Below, piece after piece: positions 9,694 to 19,337 of a stretch of 64,000 nt of DNA (positions are counted from its first letter, which is position 1; each line of letters begins with the position of its first letter). Source of the DNA: an uncultured delta proteobacterium (GTDB lineage Bacteria > Desulfobacterota > RBG-13-43-22); NCBI GenBank assembly GCA_963843145.1, contig CAWJJC010000003.1:1-64000 (forward strand), read 5' to 3'. Both the position numbers and the translations under genes were made by a program. Below the pieces are notes generated by a model. That model was not told where the DNA came from and ran no database searches. It saw only the letters and a list, made by a program, of their open reading frames with translations.

Positions 9694-9965
9694 TGCCTAT
9701 TCCACGCAATCCGGCCACCTAATCCATGATTATCCAGCCAGCCATTCCATGGGCATCTGGCCAGTTGCCGGAGCGAAGCGATGCGGGTAAATTCATGGTT
9801 ACTCCAAAGCCGCACAAGTCAACGAAGATTCAAGTTTTCGCATCGAGTCTCCATTCAAGGGTATTTTATGGGCGTAGTGGATCAGGCGATCCAGGATGGC
9901 ATCGGCCAGGGTGGGATCCCCGATTTGGGTGTGCCATTTATCCACCGAGGAGGAAAAGGGGTCAC
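9694..9965 (-). mobile_element. istB: IS21-family remnant (istB 3' end and terminal repeats)
   Basis: [34 protein letters not shown]; element end TGCCTATTCCA with repeated ATCC(G/A)GCCA..TCCA units. Confidence 0.85.
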
Positions 9966-10679
9966 CCATTAAAAGGCCTCTATCAAGAGAAAAGACAACC
10001 CCCGGCTGCAAGAAAGAGCATTTTCTTCTTACAGAGACTGGACATGATAGAACTACGCCGAGGTCTTCAACGCCTTTACCAATGCTGAAATTTCAAAGGT
10101 CGTGTTGTGGCGGCAGCATTTTTCTTCACTGCACCGGTCACCCATCAGGATCAAGGTCAAAGGATTCAATTTGGTAAGAAGGCATCAGGCCCGATCTTTA
10201 GGAGTCCAGTATCCTGGGTCGGTATACCACTATCTGCTGGAGCAATGAGCGGCGGGACAGCTTCCGGGAGGATGAAGACCGTGGGGTATTCCTGAAGGTC
10301 CTGGCTGGGTCCCAAACCATTTACAGCGTGAAGCTTTGTGCCGTCAGTTTCCCGATTCCTATAAAAATTGCATCCTGATCGCTTCTCGGTTTGACCGATT
10401 TGAGCCCGGTTTGACAACAGGACGACGGTACTCAAACGGCTAAATGTGAATGGGCGCAAACCGATGAATGCGCGACAAAACATCTGACAGGGTGTCTTTG
10501 ACCCGCGCCGTATCGTAATCGGTTTGCAATCCGACCCAGAAACCATCACTGGTGCCGAAAAAGCTAGAAGTCACAGGCCTGTATCGGCGGTTATGGACCG
10601 CTTGCCGGCTATTATTTCACTGATACGTCGTTGAGACACCCCGATTTCTTTGGAGAGCCGGTACTGAGTAATTCCCATT

Positions 10680-11629: not shown

Positions 11630-12673
11630 AGTGGGTATGCAGTTTACTCAACCGTCTACCATATATTGTGTTTGGCCACCTATAATCATTTTGCGTGGCA
11701 CGGGACGACAATCTATGGCCTGCTCCATCAGACGATAGAAGAGTAGGCCACGGGCCTTGGATGTCCGCCTGTTAAATCTGAACGTAAATTCATCGAGATA
11801 GTAATCCAGATGCACCGGTCTGATCGCACCGTGATGAATGCCAAGCCACCATCGGTCAAGCAAGTATGCCACCCGATGAACACGCGGCATAACAACATGA
11901 GCAGGATTTTCGCTATCCGAGATATTTGTGACAGTATGATTGTAGCCCATACCCTCTATACCGTTATATCCAGATACAAGGCACCCGAAATTCGAATATC
12001 GGCATCCCTCTTGCACGTTATCCCTGACGAATCGTCGAAGGCTTGGTGCCGACAAATCAGGAATTGTTGCCATACGAATTCTACCCGGACCACGCCCACG
12101 CACTTCCGCCGCTATGGCAACGAGTGTCTTTCGTTCCGCACCTCGCCCACGAATCTTCTTCCCGACTCCCCCGACGTAGGTTTCATCTACTTCGACTTCT
12201 CCGGTCAACTGATCCCGTCCGGGGCGCACCATCGCCCGACGCAGTTTATGAAGCCAGGTCCAGGCCGTATTATAACTGCCAAGACCAAGGACCCTTTTCA
12301 ATCCGAGAGCACTGGCTTCATGTTTTTAACTCGTCACAAACCACATAGCCAGAAACCATGTCCGAAGTGGTTTGTGACCCCCATGAAACAAAGTTCCCGG
12401 AGAACTGAATGTTTGCCGTTTACATTTTCGGCAAAGGAAAAGACCACGCCCCATTACGGACGGCTGGTCAGCCTTTTCGGCACAGCCCGGGCAAACAAAG
12501 CCTTGAGGCCATCGAAGTTTAGCAATATATTCAAGGCAAGCATTTTCGCTGCTAAACCATTTATCAAAGTCCTGGATTGTTCCAGGATAATCAATGCCCA
12601 AAACGGGGTGCCTTGGCTCTTCCATGACCACATTCTACATCTTGTGGTCGGTTGAGTAAAGTGCATACCCACT
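11630..12673 (-). mobile_element. IS1595-family insertion sequence; transposase has a nonsense codon at 12326-12328
   Basis: TIRs AGTGGGTATGCAGTTTACTCAACCG / CGGTTGAGTAAAGTGCATACCCACT; 8-bp target duplication TTATTTAT (11622-11629, 12674-12681); Zn ribbon, VEVDETYVGG and YLDEFTFRFNRR. Confidence 0.95.
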
Positions 12674-12937: not shown

Positions 12938-13025
12938 GTTATCCCGGACTTGATCCGGTATCCAGGGCCTACGAAGCTTAATCCGAGGCTGGATTCCGGA
13001 TCACGCTACGCTTGTCCGGAATGAC
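12938..13025. repeat. REP-like palindrome, GT(C/T)AT...ATGAC class (related: ~7990-8023, 8261-8292, 18459-18542, 18704-18791, 25981-26015, 27397-27507, 42629-42714)
   Basis: GTTATCCCGGAC..ATCCAG ... CTGGATTCCGG..CCGGAATGAC. Confidence 0.75.
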
Positions 13026-13064
13026 GGCCTTATTTCCTGCGATAAGTTCCTTTGGAATAATCCC

Positions 13065-13722
13065 ATGGCAAAGAAGAAAAAACATTATTTTTGGCTGGTT
13101 CCGTTAATTCTTTTTATTATTCTGGTTTTAATTCACGAGCCGGTATTGAACGGTCTGGGGGCCTTCCTGGCGCCGGCGGGGGAGAGGGAAGGGGACGCCG
13201 TGGTCCTGGAGGGGACCCAGGTGCCTCATCACCAGGGCGTGAAGGAAGGGATCGCCTTGCTCAAAGAAGGACGTGTTAAACGGATGTATTTAGTCCTTCA
13301 CCTCCTCCCCGGGAGAGCAGCTTTTTGCCATCCAGGAGGAATATGCCGGAATCCTGGGGAAAGAACTTGAACACCTGGGCGTTAAAAGAGGGCAATACCG
13401 AATCCTTCTGGCCCCGATCGACGACCACCCGATCACCCTGACCGAAGCCCGTTACGTGGTCCCTTATTTATTCCGAGACGGGGTCAAGAAGGCCATTCTC
13501 CTGGCCGAGGGGTTTCATACCCGAAGGAGTCTCTGGGCCTACCAGCGAATGGGGAACTCCCTGGGCATCCGGTTTGTTCCGGTTCCCTACTTCCCGTCTT
13601 ATTCTAAGGAGAAGTGGTGGGAAGATCTCGAGGGGATCAAAGACTTCACGGCGGAAAGCGCAAAATTGGGATACTACCTGATTAGGGGATATCTGCCGGT
13701 TAGTTCTTTTTGGAACAGATAA
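13065..13722 (+). pseudogene. YdcF/DUF218-like protein, frameshifted near 13310
   Basis: N-terminal TM helix, DAVVLEG, then HPITLTEA...AEGFHTRRS in a second frame. Confidence 0.7.
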
Positions 13723-13726
13723 GGAG

Positions 13727-13930
13727 AGGGTGTAGGGTGTAGGGTGGGCAAAGGGAGAGGGAAGAAAGAAATATAAGATGGAAGATGGAAGCAAAAAACA
13801 ATTGACCGGATTAAAATACATGATAACTTGAGGTCAAGGCTGCCGATTAGGGGAAAAACGAAAGACGATAGATGGAAGAAGGAAGCAACTGCCCTATACC
13901 CTATACCCTATACCCGATCCCCTACACCCT
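13727..13930. repeat. Inverted heptamer arrays with no enclosed gene
   Basis: AGGGTGT-type x3 at 13727-13747; ATACCCT-type x5 at 13891-13930. Confidence 0.8.
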
Positions 13931-14003
13931 TTTTGATAGCTTGTCTTTACGCTCCGTGCTCCGCACCTGGCGCTCTGCGTTTTTTTAATGAACGGTACCT
14001 CGC

Positions 14004-16097
14004 ATGCTGCTTATTCTAACCACCGTTGCGGTTCTTTTTGTCCTGATGATTGCGGTCTGGGTTTTTTTTCGGGATCCGCGTTCTCGGCTACATCAGGTCT
14101 TCGCCTTAGGTCTGCTCAGTCTGGGGGCCGAGGCTGTTCTGGCTTATCTGGCGGTCAACTCAGCCGGGGAGGAGGAGGCCCTCTGGTGGATGACGCTTCG
14201 GCACGAGGCCATGGCTTGCGGTCTCGGGGCCTGGATTCTTTTTTCTTTTACCTTCGGCCGGCCGCATCGCCAGGCCTTTGCCGAGCGGTGGAAATGGGGG
14301 CTGCTGGCCATCGCCGCGGCCCCTTTGGTGGTAGTAGTCCTGCTGCAAGGGTCTTTTTTTGGAGAAGGCCCTCTGCTCACCCCGAACGGGGACTGGCTGA
14401 TCCCCTTGGGCCGAGGGGGCTATTATTTCTATCTCCTTTTTCTGATGGGGGCGGTGCTGATCCTGATGAACCTGGAACGGGTCTTCCGCCATTCCCTGGG
14501 TCACGTGCGCTGGCGGCTCAAGTTCCTCGTTTTGGGACTGGGCAGCCTCTACGCCCTGCGGATATACACCGGGAGTCAAGCGGTCCTTTTCCGAGTCCTT
14601 GACCCCAGCCTGGAGTATTCCAATTTAGCCGCCCTGCTGGCAGGCGGGCTCCTGATGCTGATTTCCCTGCGCCGGACCCGCATGCTGGAGGTGAATGTAC
14701 AGGTATCCCAAACCGTTATTTTCCATTCCCTGACCGTCCTGATGGTCGGGATTTATTTTTTGGCGGTGGGCGTGCTGGTCAAGGTTATCCAGACCTACCG
14801 CCTGGGAATGGAATTTTCCCTGCATATTTTGGTGGTCCTGCTTTCCCTCTTGGCCTTGAGCATCCTGCTCCTGTCCGACCGGGTGCGCCGGGGAGTGAAG
14901 GAATTCGCCAGCCGGCATTTCAAACGACCCTTATATAATTATCGTAAAGAGTGGATGGCCTTTACCGAGGTCACCACTTCGGTCACCGAACCCCGTGAAC
15001 TCTGTCAGCCCGTGGTGGAACGGGTTTCCCGGATACTGGATGCCCTGTCGGTCACCATCTGGCTTATGGAAGATACACCGGAAAAAATCCAAATGGCCGG
15101 TTCCACCCTTTTTAACCAGAAGGAAGGCCAACAGGAAGCGGTCCAGTCTCCAGTGAAGGCCCTGCTCCGGGAGCTGGTTTCCGGGGAGTTGCCCCGGGAC
15201 CTGGGCGGCATGGAAACCCGCTGGTCAAAGGATACTTGGTCTTCGACTGCTGAGGTTTACCAGAAAAAGGAATCCTTTTACTGGACGGCGTTGGAGGCCG
15301 GAAACCGGCTGCTGGGTGTGATGGCCTTAGGCGACCGGGTCGGCGGGCAAGGGTTTTCCATTGAAGACCAGGACCTGCTCAAAACCATCTGCAGCCAGAC
15401 GGCCTCCAGTTTGCTTAATCTCCGGCTTTCCGAAAACCTCCGCCAGGCCAAGGAGGTCGAAGCCCTGCAGACCATGTCGGCCTTCATGATCCATGACCTG
15501 AAGAACCTGGGCAATACCCTCTCCCTGACCATGGAGAACCTGCCGGTCCACTTTGAGAACCCGGAGTTTCGGGCCGAGGCCCTGCGCATCATCCACCAGA
15601 GTGTCGAAAAGATCAACAGCATTTGCCGGGGGCTGTCGTTGTTGCGGCAAAAAATCGAGCTGCACCCGGTGAAAACAGACCTGAACCAATTGGTGCGGCA
15701 GACCCTCGCTTCTCTCGCCGTAAACCTGGGAAGGGTTGCTTTGAAGGAAGACTTCCAGCCCCTGCCCTTAATCTCCCTGGACCCGGAGCAGATCCAAAAG
15801 GTTTTGGTCAATCTGCTTCTTAATGCCCGGGAGGCTGCCGGAGAGCAGGGGGAGATTCGGGTAGCTACCCGGGGGGATAAAGGCTGGGTGACCGTTTCGG
15901 TGCGCGACAATGGGGCCGGCATGTCTCCAGAATTTTTGGCGTCTTCCCTTTTCCGGCCCTTCAAAACCACCAAAAAACAGGGCATGGGGATCGGCCTCTT
16001 CCATTCCAAGATGATCGTCGAAGCCCACGGCGGCCGGATCGAAGTGGAGAGCGAGGAGGGGCGGGGGACGGAGTTCAGGGTGATAATCAGGGGGTAG
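14004..16097 (+). CDS. prsK: PEP-CTERM system histidine kinase PrsK
   Basis: Multi-TM N-terminus, NLERVFR, YNYRKEW, GAF region, SAFMIHDLKN H-box, HATPase GMGIGL. Confidence 0.93.
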   Translation: MLLILTTVAVLFVLMIAVWVFFRDPRSRLHQVFALGLLSLGAEAVLAYLAVNSAGEEEALWWMTLRHEAMACGLGAWILFSFTFGRPHRQAFAERWKWGLLAIAAAPLVVVVLLQGSFFGEGPLLTPNGDWLIPLGRGGYYFYLLFLMGAVLILMNLERVFRHSLGHVRWRLKFLVLGLGSLYALRIYTGSQAVLFRVLDPSLEYSNLAALLAGGLLMLISLRRTRMLEVNVQVSQTVIFHSLTVLMVGIYFLAVGVLVKVIQTYRLGMEFSLHILVVLLSLLALSILLLSDRVRRGVKEFASRHFKRPLYNYRKEWMAFTEVTTSVTEPRELCQPVVERVSRILDALSVTIWLMEDTPEKIQMAGSTLFNQKEGQQEAVQSPVKALLRELVSGELPRDLGGMETRWSKDTWSSTAEVYQKKESFYWTALEAGNRLLGVMALGDRVGGQGFSIEDQDLLKTICSQTASSLLNLRLSENLRQAKEVEALQTMSAFMIHDLKNLGNTLSLTMENLPVHFENPEFRAEALRIIHQSVEKINSICRGLSLLRQKIELHPVKTDLNQLVRQTLASLAVNLGRVALKEDFQPLPLISLDPEQIQKVLVNLLLNAREAAGEQGEIRVATRGDKGWVTVSVRDNGAGMSPEFLASSLFRPFKTTKKQGMGIGLFHSKMIVEAHGGRIEVESEEGRGTEFRVIIRG

Positions 16098-16109
16098 GGG
16101 ATAAAAGAG

Positions 16110-16672
16110 AGGGTGTAGGGAGTAGGGTTTAGGGGCTAGGGATAGAATTCAAGGGGTAGGTTTAAAGGAATAAAATAAAGGATGGCGAAATGGCTGAACT
16201 TAAGAGGATTCAAAGTTATAAAGACTTAATCGTGTATCAAAAGGGATATAAATTGGCCTTGGAAATCTATAGGGCGACCAAGAAATTTCCCAAAGAAGAA
16301 ATTTTCGGCTTGGTTTCACAAATGAGAAGGAGCACCGTCTCTATCCCTTGCAACATCGCAGAAGGGTACCGGAGGAATCATCGAAAAGAATACATCCAAT
16401 TTCTTTATATTGCTTCGGGTTCTTGCGGAGAGCTGGAAACACTTGTTTCTTTATCCCAGGACTTGAATTTGGTTGATAATGATGACTTTAATAATCTATA
16501 TTGCCTACAGGATGAAATATCTCGTCTATTACAAGGACTAATAAACTCGTTATCACGGACTAAAAGGTAAAACCTCCGGTGAATAAAATAAATCAAAGCG
16601 CAACCACCGGCCCTCAATTCTCTTCCCCTGATATGGCGAGCCCTACCCCCTACCCCCTACCCCCTGCCCCCT
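16110..16672. repeat. Inverted heptamer arrays enclosing the four-helix-bundle gene
   Basis: AGGGTGT AGGGAGT AGGGTTT AGGGGCT AGGGATA (16110-16144) and AGCCCT (ACCCCCT)3 GCCCCCT (16639-16672). Confidence 0.85.
16190..16570 (+). CDS. Four helix bundle protein (23S rRNA IVS protein family)
   Basis: SYKDLIVYQK...FPKEEIFGLVSQMRRS..SIPCNIAEG...FLYIASGSCGELET; lower GC than its neighbours. Confidence 0.93.
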   Translation: MAELKRIQSYKDLIVYQKGYKLALEIYRATKKFPKEEIFGLVSQMRRSTVSIPCNIAEGYRRNHRKEYIQFLYIASGSCGELETLVSLSQDLNLVDNDDFNNLYCLQDEISRLLQGLINSLSRTKR

Positions 16673-18024
16673 CAAGCCAAAAGCTCAAGCTATTGATCGT
16701 CGATGACGACGAGTCCATTCGAAGTCAGATGAAATGGGCGTTGATCGGGGAGTACGAGGTGCTGACCGCCGAGGATCGGCCCTCAGCCCTGGAGGTGCTT
16801 CGCCGGGAACATCCGACCGTGGTGACCCTGGACCTGGGCCTGCCGCCCAAACCCGCCGAAACGGACGAAGGTTTTCAGACCCTGGCTGAAATAATGGCGT
16901 CTTCTTCGGGGACCAAGGTGATTGTGATCACCGGACAGGATGATAAAAAAAACGCCCTGAAGGCCATCGGGATGGGAGCCTATGACTTTTTCTGCAAACC
17001 GATTAAGATCGACGAACTGAAAATCGTCCTTACCCGGGCCTTTTACCTTTCCCAACTGGAGGCCGAGAATCGACTCCTTCAGGACCGCATACCGGTGGAT
17101 TCTTTCCAAGGGATGATGGGCACCAGCAAGGCGATTCTGGAGATCTTCAGTTCCTTGCGCAAGGTGGCCCCTTCGGATGTTCCTGTTTTGGTAACCGGGG
17201 AAAGCGGCACCGGCAAGGAGCTGGCTGCCAAGGCCATCCACGGCTTGAGCACCCGCAAGGAAGGGCCCTTTATTGTGATCAACTGCGGCGCCATACCGGA
17301 GAACCTGCTGGAAAGCGAACTGTTCGGCCACGAGAAGGGGGCCTTCACCGGGGCGCATATCCAACGCAAGGGGCGCATCGAGTTGTCCCAGGGCGGCTCC
17401 TTGTTCCTGGACGAGATCGCCGAGCTGCCCCTTTCCCTTCAAGTAAAGCTGCTGCGGTTCCTCCAGGAGCAGACCATCGAGCGGGTCGGGGGAAGGGAGC
17501 CGATCGTGGTGGACGCCAGGATCGTGGCCGCTACCCACCGAGACCTGAAAAAGGAAATTCAGGAGGGTCGATTCCGGGAAGACCTGTTCTACCGGATCGG
17601 GGTGATCCTAATCAATATCCCACCCCTGCGGGAGCGTCCGGGAGACACTCTCCTGCTGGCCCAGGCCTTCTTAAAAAAGATCGCCGCGGAAAACCGAAAA
17701 AAGGTGGCCGGTTTCACCCCCCAGGCCATCAGGGTTTTGGAAAAACATCCCTGGCCGGGCAATGTCCGGGAGCTGGAAAACCGCGTCAAGCGGGCGGTCA
17801 TCATGGCCGAGGGGGCCCGGGTCACCCCTGCCGATCTGGAGATGGAGGTCCTCTACAAGTATGCCGGACAGACCTTGAAGGAGGCCCGGGACGACATGGA
17901 AAAGGAGTTGATCCAGGCTACGCTGACCCGGAACAAGGGGAACATCACCAAGGCCGCCGAGGAGTTGGCGGTGAGCCGGCCGACGTTGTATGAACTGATG
18001 GAGAGGCTGGGGGTGAGTAAGTAA
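16633..18024 (+). CDS. prsR: PEP-CTERM-box sigma54 response regulator PrsR
   Basis: Receiver VTLDLGLPP, GESGTGKE, GAFTGA, WPGNVREL, Fis HTH; start could be 16579. Confidence 0.93.
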   Translation: MASPTPYPLPPAPSSQKLKLLIVDDDESIRSQMKWALIGEYEVLTAEDRPSALEVLRREHPTVVTLDLGLPPKPAETDEGFQTLAEIMASSSGTKVIVITGQDDKKNALKAIGMGAYDFFCKPIKIDELKIVLTRAFYLSQLEAENRLLQDRIPVDSFQGMMGTSKAILEIFSSLRKVAPSDVPVLVTGESGTGKELAAKAIHGLSTRKEGPFIVINCGAIPENLLESELFGHEKGAFTGAHIQRKGRIELSQGGSLFLDEIAELPLSLQVKLLRFLQEQTIERVGGREPIVVDARIVAATHRDLKKEIQEGRFREDLFYRIGVILINIPPLRERPGDTLLLAQAFLKKIAAENRKKVAGFTPQAIRVLEKHPWPGNVRELENRVKRAVIMAEGARVTPADLEMEVLYKYAGQTLKEARDDMEKELIQATLTRNKGNITKAAEELAVSRPTLYELMERLGVSK

Positions 18025-18928
18025 GAGGGAAGTAAGAGATAAAGAGAGGGAAGATGGGAGAGGGAGGAGGGAAGCAAAAGAAAAGGGGAGGAAGAATGGA
18101 ATAATGGAAAAATGGAAGGCTACGCCGAGTGCGGGGCGGTGTAGTCAGCCAGGTGAGATATTAACGGTTTCAAAATACTATTGACAGGGTACCTTAACGC
18201 CGTCCAGTCGCAACCAAAGACAAAAGACGAACTCTCACAGAGCACACAGAGATCGCAGAGAATAAATAATTTTTGATTGCCGTTGACCCCACTGTAGGCG
18301 GGGCGGCAATCAAAAAAAATATCTTGGCCTTTCTCTGCGCTCCCTGCGAACTCGAGCGAAGGGGGAGAGAGATAAAAAAAACACTCCGTGTAAATACAAT
18401 TATGAGACTGTTATTACCCGTCATATAATAGAACCGACTATTCCCTGGCCTTCCTATTGTCATTCCCGCAGCGATTTTGGGCGGGAATCCAGTCCCTGCC
18501 TGGTGCGATGCTGGATCCCCGATTAAAAAACTCGGGGATGATGGTCGGTGGTTGTACAGACTATTGTGAGACCCTTAATAATAAGGGCGCTGCAAGGATT
18601 TCGTAAAGTCTTCCGGCAGCCCCTTCATTCTCTCTGGAATTCGGACTTTCCATTTAACTTAAAATTCCCCGCTATTGGTAGTTTCGCAAAAAGTCCTTGG
18701 GGTTGTTATTGACGACGAAGCAATCCCCCAGTTGACTTATGTTGCTCCCCAAGTTCAACCAAGGGATTGCTTCGCCTCGCTCGCAATGACAGGAGGGCGT
18801 GGCTTTATTTTCGTACTAAACCAAAAATCCCCACTTTTGAGGGGTTGTTTTTCCTGCTTTTACCCTGTAGTATTCCGCAAAAAATATTTCTTCCGCAGTA
18901 CGGATTTAGAAGATGAAGGGTGGACCGC

Positions 18929-19337
18929 ATGGTTCGTTCATGGCTGCTTCGCTTCGTTTGTCTGGCTATTTCCTTCAATGCATGTATTTTCCCGTCGTTT
19001 ACCTGGGGACAGAGCGATCAGACTCTGTCTGTTCTGGGTAAGATTTTCACTGATAGAATCATTGACCAGATTGCCCTTTCTTCGGGCACCGTCCTGGCCT
19101 ATGGGATCTCCTAAATAGGCAAACTCCTGTACGTGCTGGACCTGGAGTCCTTCCAAATCAGAAAAAAAGTCGGCCTTCCTCAAAGACCTGTCAGGTTGGC
19201 GGTCAACCCCCGAAATAATCAGGCGTACGTGATTACCTGTGGGCCGATCCCAAGCGATTCGCTGTATGTATTGAACCCCGAGGGGGAAATCCTAAGAGAC
19301 GGTCACTGCCCAGAAACCCTCAGGGGATCGCTATAAT
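18929..19337 (+). pseudogene. Truncated, diverged copy of the 5' end of the RHS gene
   Basis: 18680-19337 aligns by eye with 27374-28052; TAA at 19112 replaces AAG; homology stops just before the repeat motif at 19355. Confidence 0.9.

Follow-up and report, generated by a model that had tools for sequence, protein, structure and literature searches.

A four-helix-bundle gene between inverted heptamer arrays at the prsK-prsR junction of an uncultured delta proteobacterium

In the genome of an uncultured delta proteobacterium (assembly GCA_963843145.1, with 6.9% estimated contamination), a small gene of low GC content lies between prsK and prsR, which encode a histidine kinase and a response regulator, and is bounded by inverted arrays of 7-nt repeats. 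The locus raises the question of what kind of unit has settled between these two genes, where it came from and how its hosts have accommodated it. We analysed a window of 64,000 nt (positions 1 to 64,000 of contig CAWJJC010000003.1, called C3 here, of genome G000) and compared it with the rest of this genome and with other genomes. We propose that the cassette is one copy of a widespread transposase-free unit, consisting of a PF05635/TIGR02436 gene between inverted heptamer arrays. It would be the same unit as the intervening sequence (IVS) of 23S rRNA that contains an open reading frame (ORF), here lodged in an mRNA operon, and its arrival in the gap of a few bases between prsK and prsR would date back to a remote ancestor.

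The cassette gene (16190..16570, plus strand) encodes a protein of 126 aa, which belongs to the PF05635/TIGR02436 four-helix-bundle family. It matches PF05635 (23S_rRNA_IVP) with an E value of 3.9e-39 (133.6 bits, cut-off 33.8), TIGR02436 with 127.9 bits (cut-off 24) and NF008911 with 141.2 bits (cut-off 137). The nearest solved structure is XCC0516 (PDB 2gsc, E 1.4e-17) and PDB 2rld is also matched (E 2e-4). The motif R..S...N..E, described for the PF05635-type family in PMC3936711, is present as QMRRSTVSIPCNIAEG. This protein is the sole ORF enclosed by the arms, and no transposase is carried by the cassette. Both neighbours pass the equivalog cut-offs for PrsK and PrsR: prsK (14004..16097, plus strand) encodes an XrtA/PEP-CTERM system histidine kinase with HATPase_c and GAF domains (TIGR02916, 411 bits, cut-off 300), and prsR (16633..18024, plus strand) encodes a PEP-CTERM-box sigma-54 response regulator with Response_reg, Sigma54_activat and HTH_8 domains (TIGR02915, 636.3 bits, cut-off 502.6). 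The GC content is 0.35-0.40 over 16100-16599 and 0.53-0.63 in the flanking genes (on average about 0.38 for the cassette gene and 0.58 for its surroundings). The view of the initial annotation, made from the sequence alone, that a lower-GC gene interrupts prsK-prsR is borne out by this profile and by the PF05635, TIGR02916 and TIGR02915 matches. The cassette is located between prsK and prsR and not inside a 23S rRNA gene, and no RNA family was matched in Rfam at E <= 1 over 13000-19000.

The left arm (16089..16158, plus strand), delimited by direct reading, by repeat family D1 and by inverted pairs I1-I6, is made of ten 7-nt units in a single register. Eight of them have an AGGG core of the AGGGnnT type (AGGGGGT, AGGGGAT, AGGGTGT, AGGGAGT, AGGGTTT, AGGGGCT, AGGGATA and AGGGGTA). 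The right arm (16641..16672, plus strand), delimited by inverted pairs, folding and duplex prediction, and present in the genome scan as a period-7 array at C3:16636-16679, reads as a partial CCCT unit, three ACCCCCT units and one GCCCCCT unit (about 4.5 units). Repeat units on both sides had been recognized in the initial annotation; their existence is confirmed, and its counts of five upstream and about five downstream are replaced by ten, eight of them with AGGG, and 4.5. The longest inverted pair joins 16109-16141 to 16641-16673 (33 nt, 82% complementary). The minimum-energy fold of 16060-16700 pairs both arms (z = -3.46), and none of 20 shuffled sequences folded as well. The predicted RNA duplex between the arms (left side 16088-16143) reached -70.8 kcal/mol, compared with -54.9 +/- 5.4 kcal/mol for a mononucleotide-shuffled right arm and -35.1 +/- 9.3 kcal/mol for random segments of the window. 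Both the fold and the duplex agree with the earlier suggestion that the arms could pair in mRNA; because the shuffled right arm still gave -54.9 kcal/mol, much of the duplex energy results from G-rich and C-rich composition.

Seventeen PF05635 matches were found in genome G000, 12 of them above the cut-off. The flanks of the window cassette gene score 17/21 complementary bases, and flanks that score at least 17/21 were found around 9 of the 12 true copies, none of the five weak matches, which are longer proteins, and none of 400 control ORFs. Of the three true copies that fall short, one is interrupted by a TGA, one is truncated, and the third has its right arm within its shortened ORF; the arm pair of this third copy scores 18/21 in the genome-wide pair scan. 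Nearly all true copies have a tandem heptamer array upstream and a complementary array downstream, with a heptamer unit that differs from copy to copy (GATGACR, CGAACAT, AATTCGA, GAGGNNC, TAACAAT, ATTGTGG, AAACGAA). Genome-wide, period-7 arrays number 137, compared with 3, 14, 3, 7, 0 and 0 arrays of periods 5, 6, 8, 9, 10 and 11, and a reverse-complement partner at most 1.5 kb away was found for 63 of them, versus 4 of 137 random regions. After merging, 57 arm pairs were obtained: nine rows (eight genes) enclose PF05635 genes, 42 are short loops of 0-283 nt without a family gene, and six span ordinary genes. The window cassette is almost certainly a member of a class of heptamer-armed PF05635 cassettes.

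Three further observations concern copies and arrays of this genome. In the copy at C19:83226-83570, a TGA in frame stands at a position occupied by Gln in the paralogues of contig C4 (AEAW*KRKY versus AEAWQKRRY), so that this copy is either a pseudogene or a gene with a recoded codon. The end of contig C4 (C4:1-10157) is dense in GATGACG/GGAGGAC arrays, one of which is 343 nt long (9815-10157), and also carries two near-identical PF05635 copies 3 kb apart. Period-7 arrays (at least 16/21) were found within 160 nt downstream of 27 and upstream of 5 of 400 random ORFs; such arrays may tend to sit at ORF ends, or to create them.

For other genomes, 80 loci were retrieved with the window protein as single query, which biases the set to relatives of the window copy; kin among these loci are not independent and the counts are descriptive. 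Their taxon labels, which are the depositors', are Thermodesulfobacteriota, Nitrospirota, Omnitrophota, Planctomycetota, Bacteroidota, Patescibacteria, Cyanobacteria, Verrucomicrobiota, Chloroflexota and others. Among the 71 usable loci, whose flanks are complete and free of masked bases, 56 reach the complementarity threshold of 17/21 in their near flanks, compared with 0 of 69 far-flank controls. The expectation that other family members carry arms therefore held elsewhere (56/71) as in the genome of the window (9/12). The repeat length is 7 in 77 of 142 flanks (at least 16/21), compared with 0, 0, 17 and 2 for periods 5, 6, 8 and 9. Left arms matched their own right arms with a mean score of 17.6 and the right arms of other loci with 14.1, and in 47 of 72 loci no other right arm scored higher than the cognate one. 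The sequence of the arms shifts from locus to locus and their complementarity is kept, which amounts to covariation for a stem.

A different reading of the arms is that the left one forms a G-quadruplex and the C-rich one an i-motif, inverted symmetry being secondary. The left arm consists of GGG blocks spaced by 4 nt and fits the usual quadruplex pattern, G3N1-7. However, the same architecture is shared by sister cassettes devoid of G runs (CGAACAT, AATTCGA, TAACAAT, GATGACA), and the arms covary as complements across loci, which makes this reading very improbable.

The closest known system is the IVS of 23S rRNA. According to PMC4990558, the Coxiella IVS contains an S23p ORF, and its terminal inverted repeats pair into a 28-bp stem, with three tandem GACAGAT heptamers before the ORF, whose copy number varies between strains; RNase III cleaves at the first repeat, and an older idea that the IVS ORF serves mobility is cited. 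The cassette has a protein of the same family as the IVS of Coxiella burnetii (helix-45, with S23p) and of Leptospira, and shares with them terminal inverted repeats, a long stem around the ORF and the lack of a transposase. It further resembles the Coxiella IVS in its tandem-heptamer stem and in the decay of the ORF in some strains (PMC4990558). At prsK-prsR, a predicted stem with heptamers and terminal inverted repeats encloses an S23p-family ORF. Unlike rRNA IVSs, the cassette lies between two protein-coding genes of an operon, its arms overlap host coding sequences, giving the PrsK stop and the PrsR N-terminus, and its excision would remove the start codon of the downstream gene. RNase III cleavage is demonstrated for the rRNA elements and putative for the cassette. 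As to other sites, the family occurs in rRNA insertions of candidate-phyla bacteria (PMC11270868), and 18 family genes are inserted in cas loci, for instance between cmr3 and cmr2 (PMC3936711, in a passage that does not mention arms).

The family is also related to Avd, the accessory protein of diversity-generating retroelements (DGRs) (PMC10053308). The links to 23S rRNA IVSs and to Avd stated in the initial annotation are supported by the profile and PDB matches and by PMC4990558 and PMC10053308. It could be envisaged that the cassette gene is an Avd gene left behind by a DGR, since it weakly matches PF22296 (32.5 bits) and NF033474 (26.5 bits). Both scores are below the cut-offs (40 and 80 bits, respectively), and NF033474 is the Avd equivalog. 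None of the four reverse transcriptase (RVT_1) matches in the genome is on the contig of the cassette (they are on C8, C6, C20 and C27), and the closest is about 30 kb from any family member. With this equivalog score and no adjacent reverse transcriptase, identity with DGR Avd was rejected, and we attribute a next to negligible probability to a DGR origin of the gene. To our knowledge, heptamer arms are not part of DGRs.

How the cassette came to prsK-prsR was addressed by comparing junctions. The PrsK search matched 8 of 41 relatives and 69 of 401 genomes across the phylum, and 33 loci were examined. Nine junctions are empty, with 3-54 nt from the PrsK stop to the LLIVDD motif of PrsR (PrsK identity 32-44%), and 14 are filled (122-1178 nt); eight loci have no PrsR downstream (in three of them the contig ends within 20-800 nt) and two lack the PrsK C-terminus. 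The existence of empty alleles indicates that the direction of change is insertion, and the nine empty loci, together with the lack of a carried transposase, uphold the earlier proposal of a transposase-free unit inserted in a tight ancestral junction. The contrast of filled and empty alleles that was anticipated is seen across the phylum and not among close relatives: the six nearest orthologous junctions are all filled, and empty junctions are confined to family-level distance or beyond, where they are too diverged for base-by-base alignment with filled ones.

The filled junctions differ in content. In genome G001 (PrsK identity 90%) the same cassette is present and its ORF has a stop codon. 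In the congener G003 (PrsK identity 89%) the TAGGG left arm is kept and the rest is replaced by a fragment of another PF05635 gene with GGAAGAT/TTCCATN arms. Two more distant genomes (G018 and G020, PrsK identity 43-45%) have TAGGG-armed copies, one intact and one, in G020, frameshifted. The G012 junction holds a truncated GxxExxY/PDDEXK_3 gene in an ACAGGAT-type palindrome, and that of G027 another decayed PF05635 copy. Further PF05635 lineages (G337, G224), a Uma2 gene (G058), a PIN gene (G387) and a gene-less hairpin (G334) were also found. Because of this variety, a permissive hot spot fits as well as a single old insertion: the junction would be permissive or preferred, and TAGGG cassettes would have arrived there repeatedly or by lateral replacement. 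At least seven kinds of filler at prsK-prsR in different genomes, and the swap in G003 of all but the TAGGG arm, favour repeated arrival, as does the replacement elsewhere of a G000 CGAACAT hairpin by a GAGCAAG-type hairpin in G001.

The relationships of the proteins argue in the opposite direction. Nine of the 80 nearest homologues are located between a PrsK C-terminus and a PrsR N-terminus; six of them are labelled Thermodesulfobacteriota, Syntrophales or delta-proteobacteria, and three Nitrospirota. In a tree of 76 proteins (125 columns), the nine junction rows all belong to a single 15-member clade (support 100/98), and the junction and non-junction labels require 3 changes, compared with a mean of 8.7 for shuffled labels. 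The identity of the cassette protein to that of the window follows the identity of the PrsR N-terminus pair by pair (in %, 67/70, 64.5/66.7, 65.8/66.7, 62.4/66.1, 60.8/62.7, 67.3/62.5 and 62.0/60.3), which is what co-inheritance of the three genes predicts. Moreover, the recruited TAG stop and the internal ATG described below recur across the clade. The other six rows of the clade are non-junction copies nested among the junction copies, a point in favour of repeated arrival; on balance we consider a hot spot unlikely to be the explanation. The window cassette probably descends from one old insertion into the tight prsK-prsR junction. It would then have been inherited with both genes, or moved as one module with them, through Syntrophales-like Thermodesulfobacteriota and records labelled Nitrospirota.

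Clade members from outside the junction are found between two branched-chain permease genes, after era, and between NHL-repeat and multihaem cytochrome genes. As these loci are unrelated, the cassette lineage has moved, and copies of the same clade would have relocated from one locus to another. Both dispersed copies and filler differences between congeners were observed for the cassette class. The gene copy at C28:508951 is also present in G003, and the other spacers compared have different fillers in each genome. The G002 site corresponding to C28:154329-154460 is near-empty and retains a 21-nt remnant of the right arm; it is therefore a loss and not an empty target.

In the same spacer comparisons, a 57-nt insertion relative to G003 was observed at G000:C28:508282-508404 (L134:783-905), inside a small repeated non-heptamer hairpin of another family. 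The spacer G000:C28:284950-285816 (L135:2450-3316) measures about 790 nt in G000, and 84, 102 and 289 nt in G002, G003 and G001 respectively. Its repeat fillers differ in each genome, and part of the G000 filler recurs on another G001 contig.

Selection on the protein was estimated from codon substitutions. The dN/dS ratio was 0.06 between the window and G001 (78 codons), 0.10-0.25 within the junction clade for unsaturated dS, and 0.03-0.27 over all 14 pairs for which dS was finite; in another six it was saturated, as it is for most deep pairs. About half of the junction copies are broken, by a stop (G001), a frameshift (G020, L072, L073), decay (L031) or an altered C-terminus (L065), which indicates that the host has no strict need of the ORF. 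The cassette protein is therefore under purifying selection in some lineages and dispensable or decaying in others. We are fairly confident, on sequence comparison, that the cassette is an old co-diverging resident and not a recent insertion.

Several points weigh against a single old insertion of a heptamer-armed unit. The fillers differ between genomes (three other PF05635 lineages, GxxExxY, Uma2, PIN and a gene-less hairpin). Neither a target-site duplication nor a clean recent empty site was found among the congeners examined. Metagenome bins may carry erroneous taxon labels. Roughly every second copy at the junction is no longer intact, 15 of the 71 usable loci of other genomes lack complementary flanks at 17/21, and the duplex energy is in part compositional, as the value for the shuffled right arm shows.

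The two host genes end and start within the cassette. The PrsK stop, TAG at 16095-16097, spans the boundary of left-arm units 1 and 2 (context tcagggggTAGgggat). Among the nine junction loci with a readable PrsK end, the stop is a TAG within an arm unit in eight, and in the ninth PrsK continues through the arm; the G020 junction shows the same arm TAG as PrsK stop. Since the unit length of 7 is not divisible by 3, a TAG comes up in every frame of a TAGGG array within three units. PrsK would have adapted to the insertion by terminating at the earliest TAG that the TAGGG-type left arm offers in its frame.

At the other end, 10 of 12 orthologous loci have an ATG in frame with PrsR that follows the cassette gene stop and precedes the right arm; of the other two, L056 has its PrsR start beyond the arm, and in one the start is not clear. 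In the window the likely prsR start is the ATG at 16633-16635, which with the next bases occupies 16633..16640 (plus strand), as judged from the predicted duplex structure and the in-frame reading. The right arm is translated as PrsR residues 3-14 (SPTPYPLPPAPS), within an N-terminal extension that is variable and proline/threonine-rich (here MASPTPYPLPPAPSS). The in-frame reading of the right arm with PrsR, noted in the initial annotation, is thus correct. The alternative prsR start, GTG at 16579, is also upstream of the right arm. PrsR would thereby initiate at a cassette ATG, and translation of the C-rich right arm would give it a proline-rich extension at the N-terminus. Left-arm stop codons or right-arm starts were read in TAGGG- and GATGACA-type arms, and neither in CGAACAT nor in AATTCGA arms, so that arm-borne stops and starts were rejected as a general property of the class.

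The predicted duplex places ATG 16633 in an internal loop of 8 nt that is flanked by helix at each end and is situated to the loop side of the main right arm. As the start codon is on the loop side of the stem, IVS-style excision would sever prsR from its ATG, and an intact stem, if it forms as modelled, should hinder prsR initiation. It could be imagined that the cassette has been domesticated, the hairpin sequestering the prsR start until it is opened or cleaved, so that synthesis of the regulator depends on the cassette; the arm-encoded proline-rich N-terminus may matter too. The position of the ATG between helices of a duplex predicted at -70.8 kcal/mol, the recurrence of the ATG-before-arm layout in 10 of 12 loci and the long persistence of the cassette at one junction are consistent with such a role. 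So is the absence of any promoter- or terminator-like site from the prsK stop to the cassette gene start in a scan that returned 3 and 11 sites in total (shuffle means 2.6 and 6.9). Nine relatives with tight junctions nevertheless manage without a cassette, the arm-encoded peptides vary freely in length and sequence, and L056 starts PrsR after the arm; we regard a dependence of the regulator on the cassette as improbable. Neither domestication nor a hot spot is in all its parts exclusive of the single old insertion that we favour. In this preferred account the transcribed arms would form a long stem enclosing the cassette gene and the prsR start. Such a stem is about as likely as not to form in vivo and to act on prsR translation or be cut by RNase III, as happens in rRNA.

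The 42 short arm pairs without a family gene suggest what becomes of gene copies. Short CGAACAT elements retain the leader (ggtyaatgggaaaaga, followed by ATG in some) and the trailer (ggtattgg...ttgtttttcattcgatg) of the gene copy C28:508951-509442, and short CGAAAT elements retain the start and first codons of the gene copy C28:283654-284150. In addition, C3:115215-115542 is a half-deleted gene copy, and the congener G001 has the C28:283654 copy without 204 internal bases. From their sequences, these two hairpin families look like internal-deletion derivatives of gene copies, and gene copies would in this way shrink to gene-less hairpins. Another such hairpin, of the TAGGG type, lies directly 5' of prsK (13723..13931, no strand assigned; arm pair score 17/21), with GGGTGTA units at 13723-13745 facing CCCTATA units at 13886-13931 across a loop of 142 nt. 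Its loop contains two same-strand arrays of the GGAAGAT type, gatggaagatggaagcaa and gatagatggaagaaggaagcaac, as if one array type had been nested in another.

Dispersed short palindromic families in spacers, with short forms that derive from a longer gene-carrying form, are reminiscent of MITE- or REPIN-like elements. Unlike these, the full-length form has no recognizable transposase or RAYT, and encodes a helical protein of 120-130 aa only. It also differs by its tandem heptamer arms, whose unit is family-specific; no target-site duplication was seen at the sites compared. Tandem heptanucleotide arrays are likewise known in cyanobacteria as short tandemly repeated repetitive (STRR) sequences, heptamers scattered in intergenic DNA. 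One cyanobacterial locus among the 80 (L122) has CACACCC-type arrays around the gene; the link between STRR sequences and the cassette is a lead only.

Other repeats and genes of the window were noted in passing. A purine-rich GGAAGAG/AATGGAA-type array follows the prsR stop directly (18010-18130) and has no complementary partner nearby; similar arrays are present at about nine other places in the genome. At 18190-18400 lies a dispersed repeat of about 200 nt that is not heptameric, with 65 BLAST pieces in the genome, and one copy of it is nested in the loop of a CGAACAT hairpin (C20:544773-545118). Upstream of prsK, two adjacent minus-strand ORFs of 217 and 101 aa (11648-12631), the second with a CxxC...CxxC motif, are presumably the two halves of a frameshifted IS-type transposase.

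What the protein does for the unit is a matter for more tentative proposals. It is possible, though rather doubtful, that its binding targets are the heptamer arrays and that it helps the cassette to persist or spread. A bolder and still less likely view is that the four-helix-bundle protein is a dedicated non-enzymatic partner of its own arrays, which would make these cassettes a new transposase-free selfish class, and that the stem at prsK-prsR gates translation of the regulator. Spread might then occur, for example, by hairpin- or array-guided template switching during replication, and the rRNA IVS would merely be the best-known landing site.

In the literature searched, in which older papers are thinly covered, the unit formed by the gene and its heptamer stem is undescribed as a general element outside rRNA. 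What is new at prsK-prsR is the long residency at one operon junction, the series of filled and empty sites, and the recruited stop and start. If our interpretation holds, the unit lives in mRNA and is kept with its neighbours over a large evolutionary distance. The locus offers a natural reporter, prsR translation, for formation or cleavage of the stem, the genome a set of cognate pairs of proteins and arms, and the junction a filled and empty series for dating. The cassette class helps to account for the frequency of tandem 7-base repeats in some bacterial genomes and, should the protein prove to be a partner of its own arrays, a selfish hairpin would have become part of a signalling operon.

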